Source of the DNA: an uncultured Lachnospiraceae bacterium
Lineage (GTDB): Bacteria; Bacillota; Clostridia; Lachnospirales; Lachnospiraceae
DNA: 53,503 nucleotides
Assembly (NCBI GenBank): GCA_964635395.1
Contig: CAZWNX010000001.1
Location: 1-53,503 of the forward strand
Direction: 5' to 3'
The notes under the pieces are model-generated. The model was not told where the DNA came from. It worked only from the letters and a program-made list of their open reading frames with translations, and did not search any database. How positions within the stretch are numbered: the stretch's first letter is position 1; each line of letters opens with the position of its first letter. A program made the translations under genes and the position numbers. This document shows positions 5,796 through 48,977 of the stretch, piece by piece.

Positions 5796-6865
5796 CCATT
5801 TTGCTTTGCGAGTAATAGTTTCTGGTGTGCCAAAATGATGGTTGCATCAATTCCTTGAAAATCAATATATTCTGTAATGCCGCCACTGATTGTAACGTGA
5901 ATGGGGGTGTCTGTAATATAAAAAGTATAATTGTTTAGATAATTACAAAAATCGTTCAGTGCCACTTGTGAACTTGCGAAAGTTATTTTTTCAAAAGTAA
6001 TCATAAACTCGGTTCCATTCCATCGAGCCAGTGTATTATTTGGAAAACGCTTTGTTAGTAAGGAGGAAAATTCTTTAATCAGTAGATCACCAAATGATAA
6101 ACCGTACATAGAATTGAAGCTTTGAAAAGAGTCGATTGAAATGATGGCAACGGAAAAGGATTCACCCTGCATAGAATACCTATGAGTGAGCTCCGTAAAA
6201 TGTTCTTGCATCGCGTTTCTGTTCAATAAGTTTGTTAAAGGGTCAATAGAATATGCGGTTTTAAGTTTTTTCGAGTTTTGCTCATAGCGTACTACAAACG
6301 AGTGAAACTTCATTGTAAAGTATACGCTTATAAAGATAATGCCTAGTAAAGCAAATAAAGCGTTTGTAATAGAAAAGATGGTTGTAAACAGAAAACGTTT
6401 TGAATCTGAAAATAGAATTGGGGAGGGAAATACTCGAATCATTAAAAAAAGAAGTATGAGAATTAGTAGTTCCCATTTTTTATTGCTGCTAGTAATTGAA
6501 AAGGAAAAAATGGTGAGTAAAATAACCATGATTAGAAATAAATGAAATGAATAATCCCAACCAATAAAGATGCTTAAACAGATTGATGTGGTAGTAATCG
6601 TTGTTTGAAAGATTCTAAGTGATAGGTAATTTTTGTTTTCAAAGGTTGCTAAAAAGCATCCGGCCATTGCAGTGATTGAAAAAAGAACAATAATACTTAG
6701 GTAATAGTGTCCCTCATAAGCGAGTAAAATAGAAGTAAGTGCGTAATATAGAGAAAAAATTAGAGAAAGACATCGAAGTAAGAAAAAAGATTTTAGAGAA
6801 GAAACCCCGTTTTCATAACTTGTACGTATGGAATTAAAAATAGTTCTATATTGTCTACTTTTCAT
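5774..6865 (-). CDS. Multi-pass membrane protein with C-terminal GGDEF domain carrying a degenerate active site (NGTEF)
   Basis: 363 aa. The N-terminal ~190 aa form about 5-6 hydrophobic helices. The GGDEF-domain landmarks are DPLTNLLNR, SIDSFQSFNS and GLSFGD, and RWNGTEF replaces RxGGDEF. Confidence 0.8.
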   Translation of the reverse strand: MKSRQYRTIFNSIRTSYENGVSSLKSFFLLRCLSLIFSLYYALTSILLAYEGHYYLSIIVLFSITAMAGCFLATFENKNYLSLRIFQTTITTTSICLSIFIGWDYSFHLFLIMVILLTIFSFSITSSNKKWELLILILLFLMIRVFPSPILFSDSKRFLFTTIFSITNALFALLGIIFISVYFTMKFHSFVVRYEQNSKKLKTAYSIDPLTNLLNRNAMQEHFTELTHRYSMQGESFSVAIISIDSFQSFNSMYGLSFGDLLIKEFSSLLTKRFPNNTLARWNGTEFMITFEKITFASSQVALNDFCNYLNNYTFYITDTPIHVTISGGITEYIDFQGIDATIILAHQKLLLAKQNGKNQITC

Positions 6866-7031
6866 ATTTTTCAGACCCTTTCATAAGTAAAAATAGTATA
6901 GCATAACTGAAAAAACTAATCTATAAATTAGTGGAAAATATTGACTTTTTGAAATGGGAGTATAATAATGGTTAAGGGTACAAATGTTTATGATTATTAA
7001 CGTTAAAATAGAATATTGAGGAGACAAAAAT

Positions 7032-8099
7032 ATGTTGGATATTAAGATTGAAAGAGCAACGAAATTGAAAGAGATTCCGGGAGAAGATAATCCGTTGCTG
7101 TTTGGTACGATTTTTACGGATCATATGTTTATTATGGACTATGTAGAAGGAAAAGGATGGATTGATCCAAGAATTGTTCCCTATGGTCCAATTGAGTTAG
7201 AACCCTCTGCAATGGTTTTTCATTACGGACAGGAAATGTTTGAAGGGTTAAAAGCATACAAAGGTATTGCTGGAAAAACACTCTTATTTCGACCAGATAA
7301 GAACATTGAACGTGCAAACAATACAAATGAAAGAATTTGTATACCTAAAGTAGATCCTGAAGATTTTTTGCAGGCAATTAAAGCAATTGTAAAAATGGAT
7401 GAGGCATGGGTTCCTACAAAAGAGGGAACATCTTTATATGTAAGACCATTTATTATAGCAACAGATCCGTTTTTAGGCGTTCGGCCTTCGAATACGTATA
7501 AGTTGATGATTATTTTGTGCCCTGTAGGTGCATATTATCCAGAGGGACTCAATCCAGTTAAAATCTGGATTGAAGAAGAGTATGTAAGAGCTGTACGTGG
7601 CGGATTAGGAGAAGCAAAAGCTGGAGCTAATTATGTAGCAAGCCTGAAGGCACAAGTCAAAGCCCATGAAGAAGGATATTCGCAAGTGCTGTGGTTGGAT
7701 GGGGTTGAAAAGAAGTATATCGAAGAAGTTGGAGCGATGAATATATTCTTTAAAATAAGCGGAAAAGTTGTTACACCAATGCTAAATGGTAGTATATTAC
7801 CAGGTGTTACGAGAGATACTTGTATAACATTGTGCAAGAACTGGGGGTTTGAAGTTGAGGAAAGAAGAATTTCAGCTCAGGAATTATTTGATGCGGCATT
7901 GGATGGAAGCCTTGAAGAAGTGTGGGGAACTGGAACGGCAGCGGTTATATCACCAGTTGGTCATTTGAGAGAAGGAAATAATGTGGTACAGATAGCGGAT
8001 GGTGGAATTGGCGAATTGAGTCAACGCTTGTATGATACAGTGACAGGAATTCAGTTAGGAAAACTGGATGGTCCAAGTGGATGGGTAGTAGAAATTTAG
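7032..8099 (+). CDS. ilvE: Branched-chain amino acid aminotransferase
   Basis: 355 aa, class IV aminotransferase pattern (FEGLKAY, YVRP, GEAKAGANY, ILPGVTRD). RBS GAGGAG lies upstream. Confidence 0.95.
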   Translation: MLDIKIERATKLKEIPGEDNPLLFGTIFTDHMFIMDYVEGKGWIDPRIVPYGPIELEPSAMVFHYGQEMFEGLKAYKGIAGKTLLFRPDKNIERANNTNERICIPKVDPEDFLQAIKAIVKMDEAWVPTKEGTSLYVRPFIIATDPFLGVRPSNTYKLMIILCPVGAYYPEGLNPVKIWIEEEYVRAVRGGLGEAKAGANYVASLKAQVKAHEEGYSQVLWLDGVEKKYIEEVGAMNIFFKISGKVVTPMLNGSILPGVTRDTCITLCKNWGFEVEERRISAQELFDAALDGSLEEVWGTGTAAVISPVGHLREGNNVVQIADGGIGELSQRLYDTVTGIQLGKLDGPSGWVVEI

Positions 8100-8192
8100 G
8101 ATAATTAGTTGGCTTTTATGAATTGGTGGGGTGGTATCCGTTGGGTTTCCACTCCATTATTAGGGTAATCAATCTGAAAATTGAAAACTAGC

Positions 8193-8220
8193 TTGACATA
8201 TCTTGAAAATGATGTATTAT
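8193..8220 (+). promoter_or_regulatory. Putative sigma-A promoter of the GntR/ABC operon
   Basis: TTGACA (8193-8198), 16-nt spacer, TATTAT (8215-8220). Confidence 0.45.
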
Positions 8221-8286
8221 TGTATTAAGTGATTAGAACAATAAAACAAATCATGATAGAAATAGCATATGGAAAGGAGTGATTAA

Positions 8287-8658
8287 ATGTCATGGAACTT
8301 AAATAATGACAAACCAATTTATGCACAAATCGTAGAGCGAATTCAACGGCAAATTATTTCTGGATTTTATAAAGCAGGCGACAAATTGCCAAGCGTAAGA
8401 GATTTTGCGGCAGACGCCGGAGTGAATCCGAATACGATGCAAAAAGCTTTTGTTGAACTTGAAAGAAGTGGATTGATTGTAACGGTTCGTACAAGTGGGA
8501 GAACAGTGACAGAAGATGAGGGGTTGATTTTAGCAGTGAAAACAGAAATTGCAAAAGAACAGGTTCAGGATTTTTTGTTAAAGATGAAGGAATTTGGCTT
8601 TTCGTCAAAAGAAATTCTAGATTTATTAAATGCTTTACTTAAGGAGGAGAGGGAATGA
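8287..8658 (+). CDS. GntR-family (YtrA-like, short) transcriptional regulator
   Basis: 123 aa. Winged-HTH pattern PIYAQIVERIQRQIISGFYKAGDKLPSVRDFAADAGVNPNTMQKAF with a short C-terminal helical tail. It overlaps the next gene by 4 nt. Confidence 0.85.
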   Translation: MSWNLNNDKPIYAQIVERIQRQIISGFYKAGDKLPSVRDFAADAGVNPNTMQKAFVELERSGLIVTVRTSGRTVTEDEGLILAVKTEIAKEQVQDFLLKMKEFGFSSKEILDLLNALLKEERE

Positions 8659-9356
8659 GTTCGTTAGTTGAGTGTATTGGGCTCTCAAAATCATATACTG
8701 CTCAGAAAATGGCAGTGAGTAGTTTGAATATTAAAATTGAAAAAGGTCATATTATTGGGTTATTAGGACCAAACGGAAGTGGCAAAACAACGCTGATTAA
8801 AATGATTAATGGGTTGTTAACACCAACAGAAGGTGAAATATTGATAAATGGATATGCGCCAGGTGTTGAAAGCAAAAAAAAGGTTTCTTATCTACCTGAA
8901 AAGACCTACTTATCAGCGCAAAAGACGGTACAATCACTTCTCGATTTTTTTGAAGAGTTTTATGATGATTTTGATAAAGAGCGTGCATATAAAATGATTG
9001 AGTCTTTGAAAATAAATCCAGAAGACGCTCTAAAAACCATGTCAAAAGGAACAAAAGAAAAAATTCAATTGATTTTGGTAATGAGTCGTAATGCTGATTT
9101 ATACGTTTTAGATGAGCCAATTGCTGGAGTGGATCCAGCAGCAAGGGATTATATCATTAAAACAATTATTTCGAATTTTAATCCAGAAGCTTCACTAATC
9201 ATATCAACCCATTTGATTACGGATATTGAAAACATTTTGGATGAAGTGATTTTGATTAAGGATGGAATAATGGTTGAGCATGCGAGCGTTGAAGAATTAA
9301 GAGAACGTGAAGGAAAATCTGTGGACTCTTATTTTAGGGAGGTATTTGCATGTTAA
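8655..9356 (+). CDS. ABC transporter ATP-binding protein
   Basis: Walker A GPNGSGKTT, Walker B LYVLDEP, degenerate signature MSKGTKEK. Translationally coupled to both flanking genes. Confidence 0.9.
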   Translation: MSSLVECIGLSKSYTAQKMAVSSLNIKIEKGHIIGLLGPNGSGKTTLIKMINGLLTPTEGEILINGYAPGVESKKKVSYLPEKTYLSAQKTVQSLLDFFEEFYDDFDKERAYKMIESLKINPEDALKTMSKGTKEKIQLILVMSRNADLYVLDEPIAGVDPAARDYIIKTIISNFNPEASLIISTHLITDIENILDEVILIKDGIMVEHASVEELREREGKSVDSYFREVFAC

Positions 9357-10171
9357 AAAAATTAATTAAATACGAGTGGAATGAATGTTATAAATTAATT
9401 GGTTTGATAAATTTGGTTGTTTTAATTTTTTCGATTATTGCATGTATTGCTTTATCCTTGTTAGATTTTCAGGGCGATAACGCAAGAACAGCGTTTTCTA
9501 TGATCTTTACAATGGGATATGGGGTAATCTATGTTACGGTTTTGATGGCAGCAAGCTTTGGAGTGACATTGTTTATCTATATTCGATTTTTTAAAAATTT
9601 ATTTTCGAGCGAAGGATATTTAATGCATACGTTGCCGGTGAAAGCTAGTGAATTGATTATTTCTAAATTGGTGGTGGCATACATTATTCATTTTATTACA
9701 AGCATCGTAATTGTGGTTTGTATTGGGGCGATTGTTCTTTGTATAGGCGCAAATATAAATGGTGATTTAAGTTTTGTTGGTCAAACAATCAATGAAATTG
9801 TTAATGTTGATATCCCAGCGGATGCCATTGCCTGGGTTGTGATATATCTTGTTGGTGTTGTTATAACAATGCTTATTTCTCCACTTTTTTCGGCACTTAC
9901 AGGATACTTCTCCCTCAGTGTAGGACAACTGTTTAATAAGTATAAAATTGTATGGGGAATAGGTGTATACTTTTTAATAACATTTATTGTTCAAATCATT
10001 ACGACTGTTTTTGCAGTACCAATTTCGTTTTCGATGAGTTATTCAGAAGCTGAAGTGTTTATCTCGCAATCAGTTCAAATGATGGTGAGTTCAGGCATCA
10101 TGTGTGTGTGTATTGTAGTATTTTACCTAGTGGTAAATCACATTGTTTCTAAAAAACTAAATTTAGAATAA
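9350..10171 (+). CDS. ABC-associated integral membrane (permease-like) protein
   Basis: 273 aa with about 6 hydrophobic helices. It overlaps the ATPase gene by 7 nt. Confidence 0.7.
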   Translation: MLKKLIKYEWNECYKLIGLINLVVLIFSIIACIALSLLDFQGDNARTAFSMIFTMGYGVIYVTVLMAASFGVTLFIYIRFFKNLFSSEGYLMHTLPVKASELIISKLVVAYIIHFITSIVIVVCIGAIVLCIGANINGDLSFVGQTINEIVNVDIPADAIAWVVIYLVGVVITMLISPLFSALTGYFSLSVGQLFNKYKIVWGIGVYFLITFIVQIITTVFAVPISFSMSYSEAEVFISQSVQMMVSSGIMCVCIVVFYLVVNHIVSKKLNLE

Positions 10172-10205
10172 TTAAGAATGAGTTAAAAATAGTACCTAGA
10201 ATCAG

Positions 10206-10250
10206 AGGAGTTCATCAAATTTAGATGAACTCCTTTCCGCTTGTTTTTTA
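10206..10250 (+). terminator. Rho-independent terminator of the GntR/ABC operon
   Basis: Perfect 11-bp stem aggagttcatc/gatgaactcct (10206-10234) with loop aaattta, followed by T-rich tract ttccgcttgtttttta. Confidence 0.7.
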
Positions 10251-10260
10251 TTGTGATTTG

Positions 10261-10289
10261 TTGTGAACATAGTAAAAAAATGATATAAT
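10261..10289 (+). promoter_or_regulatory. Putative extended -10 promoter of the four-gene unknown operon
   Basis: TTGTGA (10261-10266), 17-nt spacer, TATAAT (10284-10289), with TG at 10281-10282 giving TGaTATAAT. Confidence 0.5.
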
Positions 10290-10318
10290 TTATCAAACAA
10301 CAGTGGGTGGGTGAAAAA

Positions 10319-13300
10319 ATGTCAGAGATCATGTCTCGCTTTAATGAAGATCATTATGAGTATGAATCGGGTTTGTTAGATTTTCCAATACAAAAACTAG
10401 AATTTTCGATTAAGAAAAATGAGATAAAGTCAGGTACGATTTTTATTACCAGTCAGAATGCCAAGCATATTTGTGGAAGAGTAGTATCTTCTCATTATAG
10501 AATGGAACTGAAAAAAGAAGAGTTTGATGGTACCTTTATTGAGTTGGGCTATCAATTTGGTTCAAATGGACTTGAAGAGGGAGATGTTGTAAAGGGTGAG
10601 TTTAGTATTATATCCAATATTGGAGAGTTCTATCTTCCATTTTTGGTACAAATAGAGCAGACGGTTTTGAATTCTTCCATGGGAAATGTGAAGAATTTAT
10701 TTCATTTTGCTAATTTGGCAAAAGGTAGTTGGAAAGAGGCTGTTGAATTATTCTATTCAGAAGACTTTGTTAGTGTTTTTTCGGGGAGTGATCGGCAACA
10801 TTTAGGGGTTTATAGAGGGTTATCAAAACACGTGCTAAATGAAAGAAACCTTGAAGAATTCTTGGTATGTGTTAGAAAGAAGCAACCCATCTCTTTTCAC
10901 GTTGATCAAAGCGTGGTAGAAATTGAAAGAAGTCAGATTATAAAACCTAAGCGTATTCAGATTGAGCGAAATGGCTGGGGGTATACAGAACTAGAAGTCA
11001 GTGTAGAAGGCCAGTTTATTGAAATTGACAAGAGTCTTCTTTTGGAACAGGATTTTTCTGGAAATCGTTGTGAAGTCCAATATTTTATTAAGGAAGAAGC
11101 TTTGCATGAGGGAAACAATTTTGGAAAAATCATTGTTTACTCAAAAGCCCAAAAATTTGAGATTATAGTCAAGGTAATTAGAAACAAAGTACCAATGTCT
11201 GCATTTGGATATAAAAAAGAATTAAAACAGTTACGGTTTCAAATTTTAGATCAGTTTGTTCTTTACTCGTTGGGAAAAAAGGAAAAAAGCACATGGATTC
11301 TTCAGACTGAACAAATTGTAGAAAAAATGAATATGATCAATAATAAGGATGTATTGTCAAGATTATTTCAAGCATATTTGTTAGTGGAACAGGAAAAGCT
11401 AAACGAAGCACGCTGGATATTAAAGCGAGTTGAAACCATGTTTGCAGAAGACCCAAGGGCTAGTTCGGAAATTGAAAATTACACGTTCTACTTGTATATT
11501 ATGTCTAAGTGTGAAGTGGAGCAACAGGATTTTTATGAAAAGGAAATTTGTGAAATTTATTTAAGACACTCTAACAGAATGAGCATCTTTTTTTTACGAC
11601 TTGATTGCTTGGATGATTATAATAATGCAACTAAGAAATTGATAGCAATTGAGGAGCAATATTATAAAGGGATTTATAGCCCATTATTATATACAAAAGC
11701 ATTTGCAATCTATAAGGCATCTCCTTCTTACTTTTCTAAGTTAGGTAGATTTGAGCTTAGCATTGCTGAATTTGTTTTAAAAAATCGTGTAATGACGAAG
11801 GAAATTGCCTTACAAATGACAATGCTCGCATCAAGAATGCGAGATTATAATGAGCGTGTAATTAAAATTTTGGAAAAATGTTATGAAGCATATCAGGATG
11901 TTGAGATATTGAGAGTGCTAACGTCTTTACTTATTAAAGGAAATGTTGTTAAAAAAGAGGCACATATTTGGTTTGATTTGGCAATACAAAAAGAACTTAG
12001 AATTACAAAGTTGTACGATTATTTTTGGATGAGTAGGCCAACTGAAAGTACGATGGACGTACCAAGGATTGTCTATCTATACTTTTCTTATGAAAACAAT
12101 CTGGATTCTGATTATGCAGCAGCACTCTATTATGATGTGGTGAAAAACAAAGAATTGCATCCAGACATTTACGCTCAGTATTATGATAAGATAAGGTTGT
12201 TTCTAATGAAACAAATTCGAAAAAAACGGATTAGTATGAACCTAGCGTATCTGTATCAGCAGTTTGCAGATGGTTTGCTATCGGATGAATCTGTTGCAAA
12301 AGAGTTTCTTGACCTTGTATTTGCTCATCTAGTCGAGATTGAGCGTGATGATATTAAAAAGGTGATTCTTATCCAGGAAAATATTGTCGGGGAAAAAGAA
12401 TACGCAGTTGTTAATAAGGTAGCAACGGTACCAATTATTACAAATGAATTTCAAATTTTACTTGAAGATGCAAACAAAAACAGATATGTAAATTCGATCA
12501 ATTTTTCAATTAAGAAACTAATGATAGTGGGTAAAGTGGGTAAATATTTGGCACCAGTATCGAATGAACATTTTGCATATCAACTATATCTGAGCCAATT
12601 ATATAATTCATATCAAATGCTTGAGCAAGATAATTTGTTGAGATACGAAATGCTATTTCAGTCAGAACAACTCGATTTCTTTAGTAAAAAATCAATACAG
12701 GAACATTTGGTTCGCTATTATTATGAGCATGACTTAGAGGACAAATTAGATGTGTTGCTTGATCAAGTTGACGTATCTTACTTATCGCAAAAGGAGCGGG
12801 GAGAAATTATCCGATATTTAGTGGTGCGTGAAAAGTATGAGAGAGCACTGAATTATGTCAATCAGTTTGGATATGAAGGTGTTGGAATAAAAGTTTTAAT
12901 CAGACTTTGCACGAATTTGATAACAGAAGATATGGATTACCAAAAAAGCACTCTAAACATGGCCGCCTATGTATTTTTTCGTGACAAGTATAATGAATTG
13001 ATGTTGAAGTATTTGAACCTGTATTATTTTGGCAATGTCAAGAAAATGAGGGATATATGGAATGCATCCATACTATTTGACATTGATGCGAGAGATATTG
13101 CAGAACGAATTTTGAAACACATATTTTTTAGTAACGGATATATTGCTACAAAACATAAAGTGTTTTCTTATTATTACAAAAAGACACCGAAGCAACAGAT
13201 TGTGAATGCTTATTTATCACACAATGCATATGATTATATTGTTCGAGAAAAGATTGTTGAAGATGATGTATTCTATGTTCTCGAAAAAGAGTTGTTAGAT

Positions 13301-13879
13301 GGTGCAGCATTAAATGATTGTTGCAAGTTGGCATATATAAAGTACTTTTCCAATCATTTTGATGAAATAGATTCTAAGAGGACGCAACTTATTTGCAATA
13401 TTTTAACAAAATTGCTTGTAAAGGATATGTTTTTCCCATTCTATTTGAAGTTTAAAGAAGTTGTTCCTTATTTGAAAATATTCGAGAATAAGACCTTTGT
13501 TGAATTTAAATCAGAAGAGAATTTTGCTGAGATTGAATTGCACTATTTGTTTGAAAATCAATCCAATGCTGGAGCAGAGTATTCAAAAGAGGTAATGAAA
13601 GAAGTGTTTGGGGGAAATTATTTAAAACAGTTTAATTTGTTCTTTGGTGAACGGCTTCAGTACTACATTTCTGAGAAAACAAAGAGTAGCGAAAAATTAA
13701 CAGAGAGTGGAGTTCTTGAAAAAAGTGATATTGCCGGCTCAGAGAGTGAAAGTAAATATGAAATGCTCAATGATATTGTTATTAGTAGTACATTACAAGA
13801 TTTTGATACAGTGGACGAATTATTAATCGATTATCAGAAGAAAACGTTTTTATCAGAAAAAATCTTTAACATAAAATAG
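10319..13879 (+). CDS. Giant uncharacterised protein: two N-terminal beta-sandwich-like segments plus about 900 aa of helical/TPR-like repeats
   Basis: Uninterrupted 1190-codon ORF. The ATG at 10319 behind GGGTGGGTG is preferred over the GTG at 10307. I found no Walker A, no catalytic motif, no signal peptide and no TM helix. Confidence 0.8.
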   Translation: MSEIMSRFNEDHYEYESGLLDFPIQKLEFSIKKNEIKSGTIFITSQNAKHICGRVVSSHYRMELKKEEFDGTFIELGYQFGSNGLEEGDVVKGEFSIISNIGEFYLPFLVQIEQTVLNSSMGNVKNLFHFANLAKGSWKEAVELFYSEDFVSVFSGSDRQHLGVYRGLSKHVLNERNLEEFLVCVRKKQPISFHVDQSVVEIERSQIIKPKRIQIERNGWGYTELEVSVEGQFIEIDKSLLLEQDFSGNRCEVQYFIKEEALHEGNNFGKIIVYSKAQKFEIIVKVIRNKVPMSAFGYKKELKQLRFQILDQFVLYSLGKKEKSTWILQTEQIVEKMNMINNKDVLSRLFQAYLLVEQEKLNEARWILKRVETMFAEDPRASSEIENYTFYLYIMSKCEVEQQDFYEKEICEIYLRHSNRMSIFFLRLDCLDDYNNATKKLIAIEEQYYKGIYSPLLYTKAFAIYKASPSYFSKLGRFELSIAEFVLKNRVMTKEIALQMTMLASRMRDYNERVIKILEKCYEAYQDVEILRVLTSLLIKGNVVKKEAHIWFDLAIQKELRITKLYDYFWMSRPTESTMDVPRIVYLYFSYENNLDSDYAAALYYDVVKNKELHPDIYAQYYDKIRLFLMKQIRKKRISMNLAYLYQQFADGLLSDESVAKEFLDLVFAHLVEIERDDIKKVILIQENIVGEKEYAVVNKVATVPIITNEFQILLEDANKNRYVNSINFSIKKLMIVGKVGKYLAPVSNEHFAYQLYLSQLYNSYQMLEQDNLLRYEMLFQSEQLDFFSKKSIQEHLVRYYYEHDLEDKLDVLLDQVDVSYLSQKERGEIIRYLVVREKYERALNYVNQFGYEGVGIKVLIRLCTNLITEDMDYQKSTLNMAAYVFFRDKYNELMLKYLNLYYFGNVKKMRDIWNASILFDIDARDIAERILKHIFFSNGYIATKHKVFSYYYKKTPKQQIVNAYLSHNAYDYIVREKIVEDDVFYVLEKELLDGAALNDCCKLAYIKYFSNHFDEIDSKRTQLICNILTKLLVKDMFFPFYLKFKEVVPYLKIFENKTFVEFKSEENFAEIELHYLFENQSNAGAEYSKEVMKEVFGGNYLKQFNLFFGERLQYYISEKTKSSEKLTESGVLEKSDIAGSESESKYEMLNDIVISSTLQDFDTVDELLIDYQKKTFLSEKIFNIK

Positions 13880-13910
13880 CGAAAAGGGTTCTATAGAAAA
13901 GGGTCTACGA

Positions 13911-15209
13911 ATGAAGAGAGATTTGGTTAAAGAGAGGGAGAAAGGTATAATTATTGGAGTTGATATTCATCGTGAATTTACTCAAATAAGTTATGCGATT
14001 TCTCCAGAACATAAAATTGAAACAATGGAAATTTCAAAGGAATATGAAAAATATAATATTCCAACTTATTTATGTAAGCGAAAAGGCATTAATCAATGGT
14101 ACTACGGTAGAGATGCTTTCAAAAAGAAGGAGGAAGGTATCTTTCTTGAAGATATCCTTTTCAGAGCGTTATCGAATGATAAGGTGTGGATTGAAGAGAG
14201 TGAAATCAACTACACGGAGCTATTTACGATGTATTTTCGTAAAATACTGTCTATGATGGCATTTGTACGTGGAAATATGCCGATTCATGCGCTTGTAATA
14301 ACCGCTCGTGTAATGAATAAAGAAATGGTTGATTTGTTGTTAAAGACAACTAGGGAAATTGGTATTCATTCTCAGAAGGTTTTTCTAAAAAGTCATGACG
14401 AAAGTCTGTATCATTATGTCATTCATCAACCCAAGGAATTGTGGGAGTATGCGGTTGGAATTATGGATTTTTCTACAGATCATTTAGTGGGATATCGTGT
14501 GGAAGTAAATTCGAAAACAACACCGTGCGTTACCTTTATTCATGAGACGGAATACCCACAGATATACATACGGGATGATTTCGTTTCGGATATGGAAAAA
14601 GAAATTTACTTGAAAAAGATGGAAACAGATTTTTTGGAAGTATCACAAGAGTTCACGAGTGAGATAATATTTAGCTCCATATATTTGGTTGGGGGAGGAT
14701 TCACAGGAGATTTTTATAAGCCGGCACTTTCAGTTTTAGGAAGAAATAGAAGAGTATTTGGTGGTAATAATTTATACAGTAAGGGTGCATGCTTGTGCGG
14801 AATTGAGACGATATTTCCAAGTGAGCTTGCAGAGAAATACATATTTTTGGGGAAAGAGAAATTAGTGTGCAATGTGAGCGTTCTTATTAGCAATGCAGAT
14901 GAACAAGAGTACCTTTCGATGCTAGATGCTGGAATAAGTTGGTTTGATGCTAAAGCAGAAAAGATATTCTTGCTAGGTGAGGAAAAGCAGATTGAACTTA
15001 TAATTACACCCCTTAATCATAGGGAGGTTAGAAGGATTTGTATCGACCTTTGCGAATTTAACGGTAGACCAGAAAAAACAGTTAGAGTGAAGTTGAATCT
15101 ATCCATGTGTTCTAGTCAAACCCTTTGTTATAAGGTGACAGATTTGGGGTTTGGAGATTTTTTCAAACCGCTTCCAAATACTTGGGAAGACTGTATTATG
15201 CTTGATTAG
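13911..15209 (+). CDS. Hsp70/actin-fold (ASKHA) protein with degenerate nucleotide-binding motifs
   Basis: 432 aa. Four segments sit in the order and approximate spacing of Hsp70 phosphate-1, connect-1, phosphate-2 and adenosine motifs: IIGVDIHREFTQISY (res 13-27), ALVITARVMNKEMVDLLLKTTREIGI (127-151), GIMDFSTDHLVGY (183-195), IYLVGGGFTGDF (257-268). Confidence 0.65.
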   Translation: MKRDLVKEREKGIIIGVDIHREFTQISYAISPEHKIETMEISKEYEKYNIPTYLCKRKGINQWYYGRDAFKKKEEGIFLEDILFRALSNDKVWIEESEINYTELFTMYFRKILSMMAFVRGNMPIHALVITARVMNKEMVDLLLKTTREIGIHSQKVFLKSHDESLYHYVIHQPKELWEYAVGIMDFSTDHLVGYRVEVNSKTTPCVTFIHETEYPQIYIRDDFVSDMEKEIYLKKMETDFLEVSQEFTSEIIFSSIYLVGGGFTGDFYKPALSVLGRNRRVFGGNNLYSKGACLCGIETIFPSELAEKYIFLGKEKLVCNVSVLISNADEQEYLSMLDAGISWFDAKAEKIFLLGEEKQIELIITPLNHREVRRICIDLCEFNGRPEKTVRVKLNLSMCSSQTLCYKVTDLGFGDFFKPLPNTWEDCIMLD

Positions 15210-15220
15210 GAGGAAAAATT

Positions 15221-16054
15221 GTGGCACATCTTTCATTGGAAATAGGGAAACGGGCTGAGAAAGCTTATTATATGGAATTTCCAGGAATTAGCTTATCTTC
15301 AATTGAAGAACTATGCTATTATATCTGTGTATATGCGGATTATATGGGTAGGGATATGATCGGTGAAGAGTTGATTTGTTGGATTGATAAAGAGTGCGGT
15401 TTGTATGAGTTATCCATGCACTTGTCGAGTTTATATAGACAAAATTGCTCGCTTCAGTCGTTCTTAGGGTTTACATTAGAGTATGTGCATTTTTGTGACA
15501 AAGATAGAATTGCATTGATTGAGACATGCATTCGTGAAAATCAACAAACCAAGGCATCCTTTTTGAACAAAAAGAGAGCTGACTACTATGTACAGGTTAA
15601 AAAGTATCATCGTGCATTTGAGCTGTACTATAAGTTGATTGAGACAAATCTAAGTGGTGATCATCAATTTCTTGCAAATATTTATTACAATCTTGCAATT
15701 GTGTGTACTAGGTTATTCTATTTTGATCTTGCAGATGATTATTTTTTGAAAGCGTATCAATTATTTCCTGATCGAAATACTTTGATTGCACGAATTAAGT
15801 TGAAAAAACTGTCGGAACCACAGAAAGAGTTTTATATTGAGGGATACCTTGAAGAAGAATTGAAAGAACAAATCATGGAAGTCGATGCATTCATTGAAAA
15901 AGTGTCAGAACAATTTGTTCAATCGAGGGAAATGCAGGTAATTAAAGATGCATTAGATAAAAAGAAAAATTTAGAAACGGCTGAATACTATTTGGCAGTT
16001 AGAGAAATTGTGAATGATTTAAAAGAAGACTACAATAATCAGGCGACGTTGTAA
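15221..16054 (+). CDS. TPR-repeat protein, function unknown
   Basis: 277 aa, GTG start 7 nt after TAGGAGG. TPR-like helices (ANIYYNLAIVCTRLFYFDLADDYFLKAYQLFPD) and an acidic coiled C-terminus. Confidence 0.6.
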   Translation: MAHLSLEIGKRAEKAYYMEFPGISLSSIEELCYYICVYADYMGRDMIGEELICWIDKECGLYELSMHLSSLYRQNCSLQSFLGFTLEYVHFCDKDRIALIETCIRENQQTKASFLNKKRADYYVQVKKYHRAFELYYKLIETNLSGDHQFLANIYYNLAIVCTRLFYFDLADDYFLKAYQLFPDRNTLIARIKLKKLSEPQKEFYIEGYLEEELKEQIMEVDAFIEKVSEQFVQSREMQVIKDALDKKKNLETAEYYLAVREIVNDLKEDYNNQATL

Positions 16055-16069
16055 TGGGTGGGATATCGT

Positions 16070-17245
16070 ATGGGACTTTTTAAGAGGTTTTTTCGAGGCA
16101 AGGGCGAAGAGATTGATACGCATTTAGATTCGGATGATCAAAAAATAACATCACGTGATGAGTTGGATTTTGAAGATTCGTATCAAAGAAATAAATATGT
16201 TTATGAGTGTTTAGAACAAATTGCACAAGCCACAAAGGAAACGAAGAAGCTTAGTGAAGAGTATGAGTCGGTGAATGTGCACCTGAAAGATATGGAATTA
16301 ATAGATGCATTTTCGCAAAAGGACCGAACTATTTTACAAAGTCACGCAAAAGCGTTGATCCGTTTTCGGATTGAAGAAAAAAAGAAACATCACACTAACA
16401 AGAGAATGAGCGACACTAATTTCTACAAAATTGAAAAAATTCAAGATGAAGTTGAAGAAATATATAATAAAATTTTTGAAGCTCAAGAATATCAAAAGTT
16501 AGTAAAACATGATTTATCAAGGCTGGAAAGTGAAAAACAAGCATGTATTTTCCGTTATGAAGAAGCACAGCTTGCAATTCGAAACATGCGTGGGATGGCC
16601 ATCATTTGTTCGAGCGCAATTATTGTTAGTATCTTTTTATTAGTATTTTTACAGATGGTGTTAGAGTTTGAAGTTTTGGCGGGCTATCTTTTGACTGGAG
16701 TTGTAGGTTCAATCACATTGACGGTCTTATTTGTTAAGTATCTTGAGGCAATAACGGAAGCAAAGCAATCTGCAAAAAGCAAAAACAAAGTTATTACGCT
16801 ACAAAACAAAGTGAAAATTCGTTATGTAAACCAATCGAATTTACTGGATTATTTGTACACCAAGTACGAAGTTAATTCAGCTGAAGAATTGAAGAAAATG
16901 CATGAACAGTACGAACATGAACGAGAAGAAAGAAAGCGTGTTCGTGAGTTGGAGTTAGAATTAGACTTTCATGGGGAACAGATTCTTAAAATGCTTAGGC
17001 AATTTAAAATAGTGCAGTTATCCTTTTGGATACAACAACCGGAAGCACTTGTTGACCCAAAAGAAATGGTTGAGGTTCGTCATGCTTTCATTTTGAAAAG
17101 GCAAAAACTTAGAAAACAATTAGAATACAACGAGGAACTGGCAATGGTAGCTCAGCGAGAAATTCGGGACTTAGTTGGAGACTATCCAAAGTATGCTCAG
17201 GAAATTTTGAAAAAAGTATCTGATTATGAAGAGAAATTCGGGTAA
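16070..17245 (+). CDS. Coiled-coil protein with central transmembrane hairpin, function unknown
   Basis: ATG at 16070 (MGLFKRFFRGKGEE) behind GGGTGGG; an alternative GTG is at 16058. Long charged helical regions flank two adjacent hydrophobic helices (MAIICSSAIIVSIFLLVFLQMVL and LAGYLLTGVVGSITLTVLFV). Confidence 0.65.
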   Translation: MGLFKRFFRGKGEEIDTHLDSDDQKITSRDELDFEDSYQRNKYVYECLEQIAQATKETKKLSEEYESVNVHLKDMELIDAFSQKDRTILQSHAKALIRFRIEEKKKHHTNKRMSDTNFYKIEKIQDEVEEIYNKIFEAQEYQKLVKHDLSRLESEKQACIFRYEEAQLAIRNMRGMAIICSSAIIVSIFLLVFLQMVLEFEVLAGYLLTGVVGSITLTVLFVKYLEAITEAKQSAKSKNKVITLQNKVKIRYVNQSNLLDYLYTKYEVNSAEELKKMHEQYEHEREERKRVRELELELDFHGEQILKMLRQFKIVQLSFWIQQPEALVDPKEMVEVRHAFILKRQKLRKQLEYNEELAMVAQREIRDLVGDYPKYAQEILKKVSDYEEKFG

Positions 17246-17289: not shown

Positions 17290-17318
17290 TTGAAATGAAA
17301 AAACGAATTGCATATAAT
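17290..17318 (+). promoter_or_regulatory. Near-consensus sigma-A promoter upstream of purC
   Basis: TTGAAA (17290-17295), 17-nt spacer, TATAAT (17313-17318). Confidence 0.6.
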
Positions 17319-17393
17319 TGGAATGTGCTTAGACGAAAAGGTTAGTTATTTACAAATGAGGATGGACGCGCATATGCGCAGAATGGAGTGACG

Positions 17394-38878: not shown

Positions 38879-38962
38879 GCAGGAATGGCGGAATTGGCAG
38901 ACGCGCACGGTTCAGGTCCGTGTGGTAGCAATACTGTGAGGGTTCGAATCCCTTTTCCTGCA
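38879..38962 (+). tRNA. tRNA-Leu (anticodon CAG)
   Basis: Class II tRNA. Acceptor GCAGGAA/TTCCTGC plus A, anticodon stem CACGG/CCGTG, loop TTCAGGT (CAG at 38913-38915), long variable arm, T-loop GTTCGAATC. Confidence 0.9.
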
Positions 38963-39049: not shown

Positions 39050-39133
39050 GCGGGAGTGCTGGAATTGGCAGACAGGCAAGACTAAGGATCTTGTGTCTGT
39101 ATAGACGTGAGGGTTCAAGTCCCTTCTCCCGCA
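39050..39133 (+). tRNA. tRNA-Leu with apparent AAG anticodon (A34)
   Basis: Acceptor GCGGGAG/CTCCCGC plus A, anticodon stem CAAGA/TCTTG, 7-nt loop CTAAGGA with U33 and G37, which puts AAG at 39084-39086. Variable-arm hairpin GTCT-gtat-AGAC. T-arm GAGGG-TTCAAGT-CCCTT. Confidence 0.8.
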
Positions 39134-48620: not shown

Positions 48621-48950
48621 GATAAGTAGGACAGGTGATCGCACGAAAGTGAGGAAAGTCCGGGCTTCATAGGGCAAAATGCCGGATAACGTCCGGTAGA
48701 GGCAACTCTAAGGCTAGTGCAACAGAAATATACCGCCATTTATTTGGTAAGGGTGGAAGGGCAGTGTAAGAGACTACCGCCTCTTTGGTAACAAAGAGGG
48801 CATATGTAAACCCCATTTGAAGCAAGACCAGACAGAAAACGATACAGTTGCCCGCTGTGTTTTCAGGTAGGTCGCATGAGGTTATTGGTAACAATAATCC
48901 TAGATAGATGATCACTCAACGACAGAACCCGGCTTATCGTCCTGCTTATC
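48621..48950 (+). ncRNA. rnpB: RNase P RNA (type A-like)
   Basis: P4 halves GAGGAAAGTCCGGGC (5') and ACAGAACCCGGCTTA (3'). P1 pairs GATAAGTAGGAC (48621-) with GTCCTGCTTATC (-48950). Internal landmarks AGGGCAGTGTAAGAGACTACC and GTAAACCCC are present. Confidence 0.9.
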
Positions 48951-48977
48951 TTTTATAATAGAATCAAGGGAGAGGTT

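Follow-up and report, generated by a model that had tools for sequence, protein, structure and literature searches.

A four-gene operon of Lachnospiraceae that may encode a membrane-tethered complex built around a non-canonical Hsp70-like protein

Three types of prokaryotic Hsp70, namely DnaK, HscA and HscC, were distinguished in a 2021 review (PMC8215388), which gives the plasma membrane as the presumed site of action of HscC, with the tail-anchored proteins DjlB and DjlC as partners and no nucleotide exchange factor (PMC8215388). The pairing of an Hsp70 with a short tetratricopeptide repeat (TPR) module, as in Hop/STI1, Tah1, FKBP51/52, SGTA and Tom70, is a partnership otherwise regarded as eukaryotic. 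A further system of relevance is Ssz1 of the ribosome-associated complex (RAC), a divergent Hsp70 with a truncated substrate-binding region, which is permanently paired and does not cycle on clients; Ssz1 retains canonical ATP-binding loops and pairs with a J-protein. Here we describe an operon of four genes, g1 to g4, in the genome of an uncultured Lachnospiraceae bacterium (assembly GCA_964635395.1, contig CAZWNX010000001.1; "the window" denotes the whole stretch of 53,503 nucleotides that was analysed). We propose that its products form a membrane-tethered complex built around a non-canonical Hsp70-like peptide clamp, a reading to which we attach a probability of roughly 0.5. The full feature set of this module is found in none of HscC-DjlB/DjlC, Ssz1-RAC or the eukaryotic Hsp70-TPR pairs, and the module gives the impression of a bacterial Hsp70 system of a kind not yet described.

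The Lachnospiraceae rank with the most abundant gut bacteria of humans and animals; that hundreds of their species retain these roughly 7 kb without an assigned function points to a real gap in what is understood of their cell biology. The genes are already catalogued as DUFs and hence are not new in themselves: a first-pass annotation, made from the sequence alone, had tentatively suggested DUF5716 and DUF5717, and Pfam does give g1 as DUF5717 (DUF5717_N at 1e-240, 801 bits; DUF5717 at 5e-81, 273 bits; cut-offs 25-35 bits) and g2 as DUF5716 (DUF5716_C at 4e-81, 273 bits, above the gathering cut-off). A literature search on DUF5716 and DUF5717 returned no paper discussing either, and searches on Hsp70-like proteins with Lachnospiraceae, or with gene neighbourhood and TPR, found nothing useful. 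Four things appear to be undescribed: that DUF5716 is of the Hsp70 kind, that its ATP loops have been lost across the family, that the four genes make up an obligate module, and that g2 has recurrently become fused to g3.

The first-pass annotation had given g2 (13911-15209, + strand; 432 residues) an ASKHA fold with degenerate phosphate-binding loops, and both parts of that assignment stand. When the AlphaFold2 (AF2) model of g2 (59 homologues; predicted local distance difference test, pLDDT, 90.9) was compared with the PDB by Foldseek, the top 50 matches were all Hsp70 or Hsp110 proteins, with E values down to 5e-18, a probability of 1.00 and identities of about 10%. They include DnaK, BiP, Hsc70, mortalin, Ssz1, Ssb and Sse1, with the RAC structures 6sr6, 7x3k and 5mb9 among them, and the alignments extend from the nucleotide-binding domain through the beta substrate-binding domain. 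The model places a nucleotide-binding domain with Hsp70 strand order at about residues 1-309, followed by a linker (conserved L313, G314, K317 and L318) and a beta substrate-binding domain at about 310-432, in which eight strands at 320-430 form the C-terminal sandwich. This is the domain order of DnaK, HscA and HscC, with the linker conserved and the substrate-binding domain eight-stranded as it is there. The best superpositions are on DnaK with the beta domain docked on the nucleotide-binding domain (7kru, 7krv; TMq 0.59-0.60), the undocked ADP-state of DnaK (2kho, 4ani) being matched more poorly at 0.46-0.48.

In other respects g2 is unlike these chaperones. The helical lid (SBD-alpha) is absent, as g2 ends at residue 432 with its last beta strand and family lengths are about 410-445 residues, and lobe IIB of the nucleotide-binding domain is almost gone, shrunk in the model to a single helix at 227-250. 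Among 142 diverse representatives of the g2 family the phosphate-1 pattern D-h-G-[ST]-[ST] occurs in one and the phosphate-2 pattern D-h-G-G-[GSA]-T in none, the phosphate-1 loop positions being variable and often acidic. Nor is the likeness to Hsp70 detectable by HMMER: Pfam HSP70 does not match g2 at E<=1, the g2 family profile, run against the PDB, picks up no Hsp70 at E<=10, and the same kind of profile search across 1.84 billion cluster representatives reaches 1859 relatives at E<=1e-3. When the family was aligned by hhalign with an E. coli DnaK sequence, residues 347-416 paired with 420-495 at a probability of 3.4% (g2 motif L.GLP.RP...RL against L.GI.PAPRG.PQIEV of DnaK), and the rest of DnaK was unaligned. 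Taken together, the Hsp70-like model, the invisibility to hidden Markov models and the lost loops indicate that g2 is, so far as its predicted structure can tell, an Hsp70 in fold and domain plan which fails as one by family sequence and by ATP site.

These features bear on the best-surviving alternative, namely that g2 is a genuine ATP-driven, specialised Hsp70 chaperone that works at the membrane along the lines of HscC with DjlB/DjlC, its targeting and activation for a small set of membrane-associated clients being taken over from the J-domain protein by g3, g1 and g4. Such a chaperone would accord with the Hsp70 domain plan, linker and beta substrate-binding domain included, and with the better fit to docked, allosterically active states of DnaK. 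Several catalytic-type residues are also kept: D18 (53/59 homologues), K56 (57/59), R57 (56/59), E164 (59/59) and D186 (49/59) are the equivalents of DnaK D8, K70/R71, E171 and D194, as judged by the order of secondary-structure elements and by reading of motifs. A precedent is at hand in HscC, which is presumed to work at the plasma membrane with tail-anchored co-chaperones (PMC8215388); g2 would share its logic, that of a specialised Hsp70 encoded beside a membrane-anchored partner and with no nucleotide exchange factor. Against an ATP-driven cycle, however, stand the disappearance of the phosphate-1 and phosphate-2 loops from essentially all of the 142 family members, the reduction to one helix of the lobe IIB that holds adenosine, the missing lid, the lack of any match at sequence level to Pfam HSP70 or to Hsp70 chains of the PDB, and the small number of sequence relatives. 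A J-domain partner is lacking too: Pfam finds no J-domain in g1, g3 or g4 (the search covered module proteins only), and the sole HPD motif in the four proteins, at residue 614 of g1, falls where the family consensus is P-E, and so is not conserved. We therefore regard an ATP-driven chaperone as unlikely, while taking it more seriously than the other alternatives considered below.

Returning to the peptide-clamp reading, one line of support is the coupling of g2 to g3 (15221-16054, + strand; 277 residues). Fusions of the two, 685-765 residues long, make up eight of the top 150 cluster representatives of g2; in each, the C-terminal end of g2 (...DLGFGE...) is joined by a linker of some 25 residues to the N-terminal part of g3 (...VLLC.G.YA..PY...EELCY...), which is followed by the TPRs. 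The fusions are spread over at least six separate sequence clusters whose nearest neighbours are unfused, and four of the eight belong to clusters of 1109, 17, 7 and 4 members, nearly all of fusion length, so that numerous independent assemblies bear them out. One comes from a cultured isolate, Butyrivibrio sp. NC3005 (WP_026504008.1), and at the single fusion locus examined the order g1, g2::g3, g4 is kept. No g3-g4 fusion was seen among the 50 proteins reached by a search with the g3 profile. On sequence comparison, then, g2 and g3 have fused repeatedly and independently, which is strong comparative evidence that they act together in a 1:1 ratio and which strengthens the Hsp70-plus-TPR logic that the first-pass annotation had seen in this gene pair. 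The natural fusions also offer a ready-made construct for structural and biochemical work.

That g3 is a TPR protein, as first read, is borne out by its family profile, which matches consensus TPR proteins in the PDB at 1e-15 to 1e-7 over residues of about 110-200; the Pfam TPR_12 match to g3 itself (7.7e-7, 29.7 bits) lies just under its cut-off of 30.1. The layout is a conserved N-domain (about 1-100), TPRs (about 104-200) and a helical tail. In its pairing of an Hsp70-fold protein with a short TPR module, g2 with g3 resembles the eukaryotic co-chaperone systems; there are, however, differences. The TPRs of Tah1, STI1, FKBP51/52, SGTA and TOM70 score more weakly on the g3 profile (1e-3 to 1e-4) than designed consensus repeats do at 1e-15, so that the match is a generic one; of the conserved g3 residues K117, D121 and N157 only N157 lines up, by eye, with a carboxylate-clamp position. 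Many g2 proteins end in a W.EEFEV-like sequence, and the model places this C-terminal segment in a beta strand of the fold and not in a free EEVD-like tail. Finally, g3 carries its additional N-domain, with an EELCY motif and invariant E29/E30, for which the searches gave no match.

Two observations concern the g3 reading frame. In the window it starts with GTG at 15221, 6 nucleotides past a GGAGGA Shine-Dalgarno sequence, and in about 24 of 80 genome loci the start is GTG or TTG with no in-frame ATG nearby; this may reflect tuned or coupled translation relative to g2. At one locus (L015, 11246-11656) the g3 open reading frame (ORF) is merely 136 residues long with g1, g2 and g4 intact, a shortening that could reflect a frameshift, decay to a pseudogene or faulty assembly.

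The membrane attachment would be supplied by g4 (16070-17245, + strand; 391 residues, with the ATG at 16070 set by homologue N-termini), which holds the sole membrane segments of the module, g1 to g3 having no transmembrane (TM) segment. Alignment and hydropathy agree with its first description as a coiled coil with a TM hairpin. A conserved hydrophobic-basic N-terminus (MGLFKRFF... in the window; consensus about MGFFKWLFRKKK) leads into the coiled coil; then comes one hydrophobic stretch of 54 residues (172-225) with basic flanks and an acidic loop in its middle, for which a two-helix hairpin with both ends in the cytoplasm is predicted; and a strongly conserved helical domain of 165 residues (LLQNKVKIRYVNN..., KEMVEIRH..RRQSLRKQ.DYN) completes the protein. 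Pfam does not match g4, and searches of PDB sequences with the protein or its profile gave nothing beyond coiled-coil noise. Among 44 homologues of g4 there are sub-threshold Pfam matches to two-TM families (DUF2207_C in 14, DUF6594 in five with a best value of 4e-6, SLATT_4 and SLATT_1 in four), all below the curated thresholds and all overlapping the hydrophobic hairpin. Thus g4 is like the SLATT/2TM modules (DUF6594, DUF2207_C) in having a coiled coil followed by a two-helix membrane hairpin, but unlike them in its extra conserved C-terminal domain and in a genomic behaviour that is not conflict-like.

The largest product, g1 (10319-13879, + strand; 1186 residues, with the ATG at 10319 set by homologue N-termini), had been described as two all-beta segments followed by helical repeats. 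Its AF2 model (pLDDT 85.5; predicted TM-score, pTM, 0.57) has instead four beta modules, namely beta-sandwiches at 19-124, 192-288 and 1059-1134 and a small module at 669-733, alternating with two TPR/HAT-like solenoids at 294-663 and 737-1055 and followed by two terminal helices. By Foldseek the N-terminal tandem sandwiches are most like ASH/Ig-like domains of ciliary central-apparatus proteins, and the solenoids most like the TPR/HAT scaffolds Naa15, Ctr9, Ski3, Prp6 and IFT-A; these matches are generic (E 1e-5 to 1e-3, TM-scores 0.07-0.16, identity 6-14%), and none of the proteins listed shows four beta modules alternating with two solenoids. Motif and hydropathy scans showed neither a catalytic motif nor a TM segment in g1, and hhalign found no relationship between g1 and g3. 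We suggest that g1 is a soluble giant scaffold, and that both it and g3 are made up solely of modules for protein-protein interaction. Invariance along g1 is highest beside or within the beta modules and not in the solenoids: NLFHFANLAK follows the first sandwich at residues 126-134 (window about 10694-10720), and FFGE.LQYYI...LTES lies in the last module at 1108-1130 (window about 13640-13708). They are candidate partner-binding sites.

The first-pass annotation had also noted no Walker A, nuclease, protease, glycosyltransferase or secretion signature in any of the four proteins, and wider searching agrees with it. There is no Walker A or HExxH motif in them, NCBIfam, PADLOC and PHROGs gave no match to the four window proteins, and across the library scans no enzyme, defence or phage family emerged. 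The sequences of the PDB, when searched with each protein alone or with the profiles of g1, g2 and g4, returned nothing or coiled-coil noise, and none of these sequence searches led to a characterised family.

We propose, then, that the four products would most likely come together as one complex on the cytoplasmic side of the membrane. In such a complex g2 would be, like Ssz1 in RAC, a structural subunit or dedicated peptide clamp and not a promiscuous ATP-cycling foldase; its partners, unlike that of Ssz1, would be TPR proteins and a membrane anchor, and there is no sign of an association with the ribosome. The TPR protein g3 would sit on g2 in a 1:1 ratio, g4 would tether the assembly to the membrane, and g1 would be the platform that binds a client or structure. 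A hydrophobic core with basic flanks is the classical ligand pattern of Hsp70, and the N-terminal peptide of g4 fits it; this peptide is thus a candidate for the g2 cleft, and g4 might hold the complex by offering it as a ligand. The role of the module is most likely a constitutive, envelope-proximal, housekeeping one.

Several points weigh against this proposal. The g2-g3 fusions are the only direct evidence of contact among the four proteins, and the four-protein complex is something that we infer. The conserved equivalents of D8, K70, E171 and D194 may mean that g2 has a non-canonical site for a nucleotide or another ligand; the equivalence of these catalytic-type residues is a reading of motifs and of secondary-structure order. 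The N-terminal peptide of g4 could equally be an amphipathic helix that binds the membrane.

A bolder version can be put forward only tentatively, and we would not be surprised to see it fail: that DUF5716 represents a fourth, cryptic lineage of prokaryotic Hsp70, one without ATP cycling, lid, J-protein or exchange factor. With a fusable TPR partner, a beta-sandwich/solenoid platform of 1186 residues and a hairpin-anchored coiled-coil protein, it might constitute a permanent membrane-associated machine, specific to Lachnospiraceae and near-universal there, which serves a lineage-specific process without a described counterpart. In that case g2 would add to the Hsp70s a lineage that keeps their domain plan but not their canonical ATP site.

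The organisation of the locus is consistent with a single unit. The four ORFs lie on the + strand, as first reported, with gaps of 31, 11 and 15 nucleotides, the last becoming 3 nucleotides if g4 starts at the alternative GTG at 16058. The first-pass annotation had taken them for an autonomous transcription unit with a terminator upstream, an extended -10 promoter of its own and a separate promoter for purC downstream. All three elements were located, and the delimitation of the unit holds at its 5′ end and fails at its 3′ end. On the 5′ side, the intrinsic terminator of the upstream ABC-transporter genes (10204-10250, + strand) consists of a hairpin at 10204-10236, with a 13-bp stem (5 G-C pairs) and a 7-nucleotide loop, followed by a T-run; it is predicted to be the 5′ boundary of the four-gene unit. 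The sigmaA-type promoter behind it (10261-10289, + strand) reads TTGTGA-17 nt-TGaTATAAT, matching the consensus at 10 of 12 positions and having the TG of an extended -10. Promoter-like matches as a class are no commoner in this region than in shuffled sequence (41 against 38.3), and so this lone match proves nothing by itself. When 105 distinct regions 5′ of orthologous g1 genes are compared, however, 90 contain the extended -10 element (TGNTANANT), compared with 11.7 in shuffles, at a median position of -53.5 relative to the g1 start codon; the g1 promoter is thus conserved and no chance match, and the 5′ end of the unit is real. On the 3′ side, the interval from g4 to purC in the window showed no terminator, and among 135 related loci only 13 have a terminator-like hairpin within 200 nucleotides after g4, so that this end of the unit is not delimited. 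The near-consensus promoter ahead of purC lies at 17290-17318, and no RNA element was found by Rfam in or beside the operon.

The type of this promoter is also relevant to a second alternative, in which the module is a developmental apparatus (for sporulation, for example) or a cytoskeletal filament, with g2 polymerising like an actin homologue. The ASKHA fold of g2 is indeed common to actin, MreB and ParM; a coiled-coil membrane partner recalls pairs of the PilM-PilN or FtsA type, and many Lachnospiraceae sporulate. Yet actin, MreB and ParM are all missing from the top 50 listed fold matches of g2, every one of which is an Hsp70 or Hsp110, and g2 has the beta substrate-binding domain of an Hsp70. 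As to the conserved promoter, with its extended -10 it belongs to the vegetative sigmaA class and not to that of a sporulation sigma factor, and at the loci examined no pilus, secretion, sporulation or defence genes are linked to the module. Such an apparatus is very improbable in our view, and the coat or cytoskeletal architecture that the first-pass annotation had imagined finds no backing in the generic, low-scoring matches of g1 or in the fold matches of g2.

The four genes belong together wherever we have looked. In a scan of one genome per GTDB species, g2 was carried by at least 577 species. The homologue searches each list their best 80-150 matches; nearly all of the 80 listed g2 loci are titled Lachnospiraceae or a member genus, and the few others bear titles that are wider in scope or seem to stem from mis-binning (Bacillota bacterium, Clostridiales bacterium, Clostridium sp., uncultured Bacteroides sp.). 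Profiling of co-occurrence, which the first-pass annotation had proposed, showed it to be strict. Searching genomes from g2, the order g1-g2-g3-g4 on one strand was found in 80 of 80 loci, the sole missing g1 being lost to a contig end; searching metagenomes from g4, the upstream genes were present at every locus where the contig has room (g3 in 71/71, g2 in 57/57, g1 in 42/42). The module is therefore obligate, its genes co-occurring strictly in both search directions. It is also compact, with median gaps of 16, 17 and 9 nucleotides between its genes across 73 loci. The flanks vary: purC, purF or purB is often downstream and a GntR-ABC triad often upstream in either orientation, and there are other contexts too.

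Pairwise distances among the g1-g4 proteins correlate with one another at a Spearman coefficient of 0.76-0.85, and those of each with purB at 0.53-0.60. The mean identity of the four module proteins is 40-52% and that of purB 88%, so that the module evolves much faster. Its GC content, 31-36%, is that of the flanks, and a viral contig collection yielded one match (L163, IMG/VR UViG_3300029230_000168, 6366-11215), in which g1 and g2 occupy the extreme end of a contig of 42.7 kb and which is probably host flank taken into a predicted provirus. These distance correlations, the native GC content and the near-absence from viral contigs argue for a vertically inherited core module and not a mobile island. 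Judged by sequence alone, the four genes thus form one vertically inherited operon of Lachnospiraceae with its own housekeeping-type promoter. A mobile or viral origin was considered, and was rejected in view of the flank-matching GC and of the single viral-collection match at a contig end.

The last alternative, an anti-phage or conflict system in which g4 is a pore-forming, SLATT-like two-TM effector restrained by an Hsp70-like and TPR sensor, could draw on the two-TM matches of some g4 homologues (DUF6594, SLATT_4, SLATT_1, DUF2207_C), on one PADLOC match to RTasSLATT among them (0.0067) and on the fast evolution of the module, but it is very improbable, because every one of those two-TM matches is sub-threshold and overlaps the hydrophobic hairpin, PADLOC gave no consistent match for the four proteins or their families (sporadic sub-threshold or coiled-coil noise only among 44 g4 and 59 g2 homologues), the position between housekeeping genes is conserved in most loci, the distances co-vary with purB, the GC content is that of the flanks, the protein lengths are constant, the module has no nuclease, protease, TIR or cyclase, and viral contigs hold only the one match at a contig end.

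Some neighbouring features deserve mention. The triad directly 5′ of g1 (window 8287-10171) comprises a YtrA-like GntR regulator, an ABC ATPase and a membrane protein. About one in four of the 80 genome loci (L001-L004, L035 and L048, for example) have it next to g1, sometimes divergent from it and sometimes co-directional; an adjacency that survives inversion may hint at a functional or regulatory link. At the other end of the operon, a perfect 12-nucleotide palindrome, GCGCATATGCGC, lies at 17367-17378, 3′ of the purC promoter and just 5′ of the purC start codon, and may be a candidate operator. Elsewhere in the window Rfam identifies an RNase P RNA of class A at 48623-48952 (304 bits), and there are three tRNA genes, at 1554-1625, 38879-38962 and 39050-39133.

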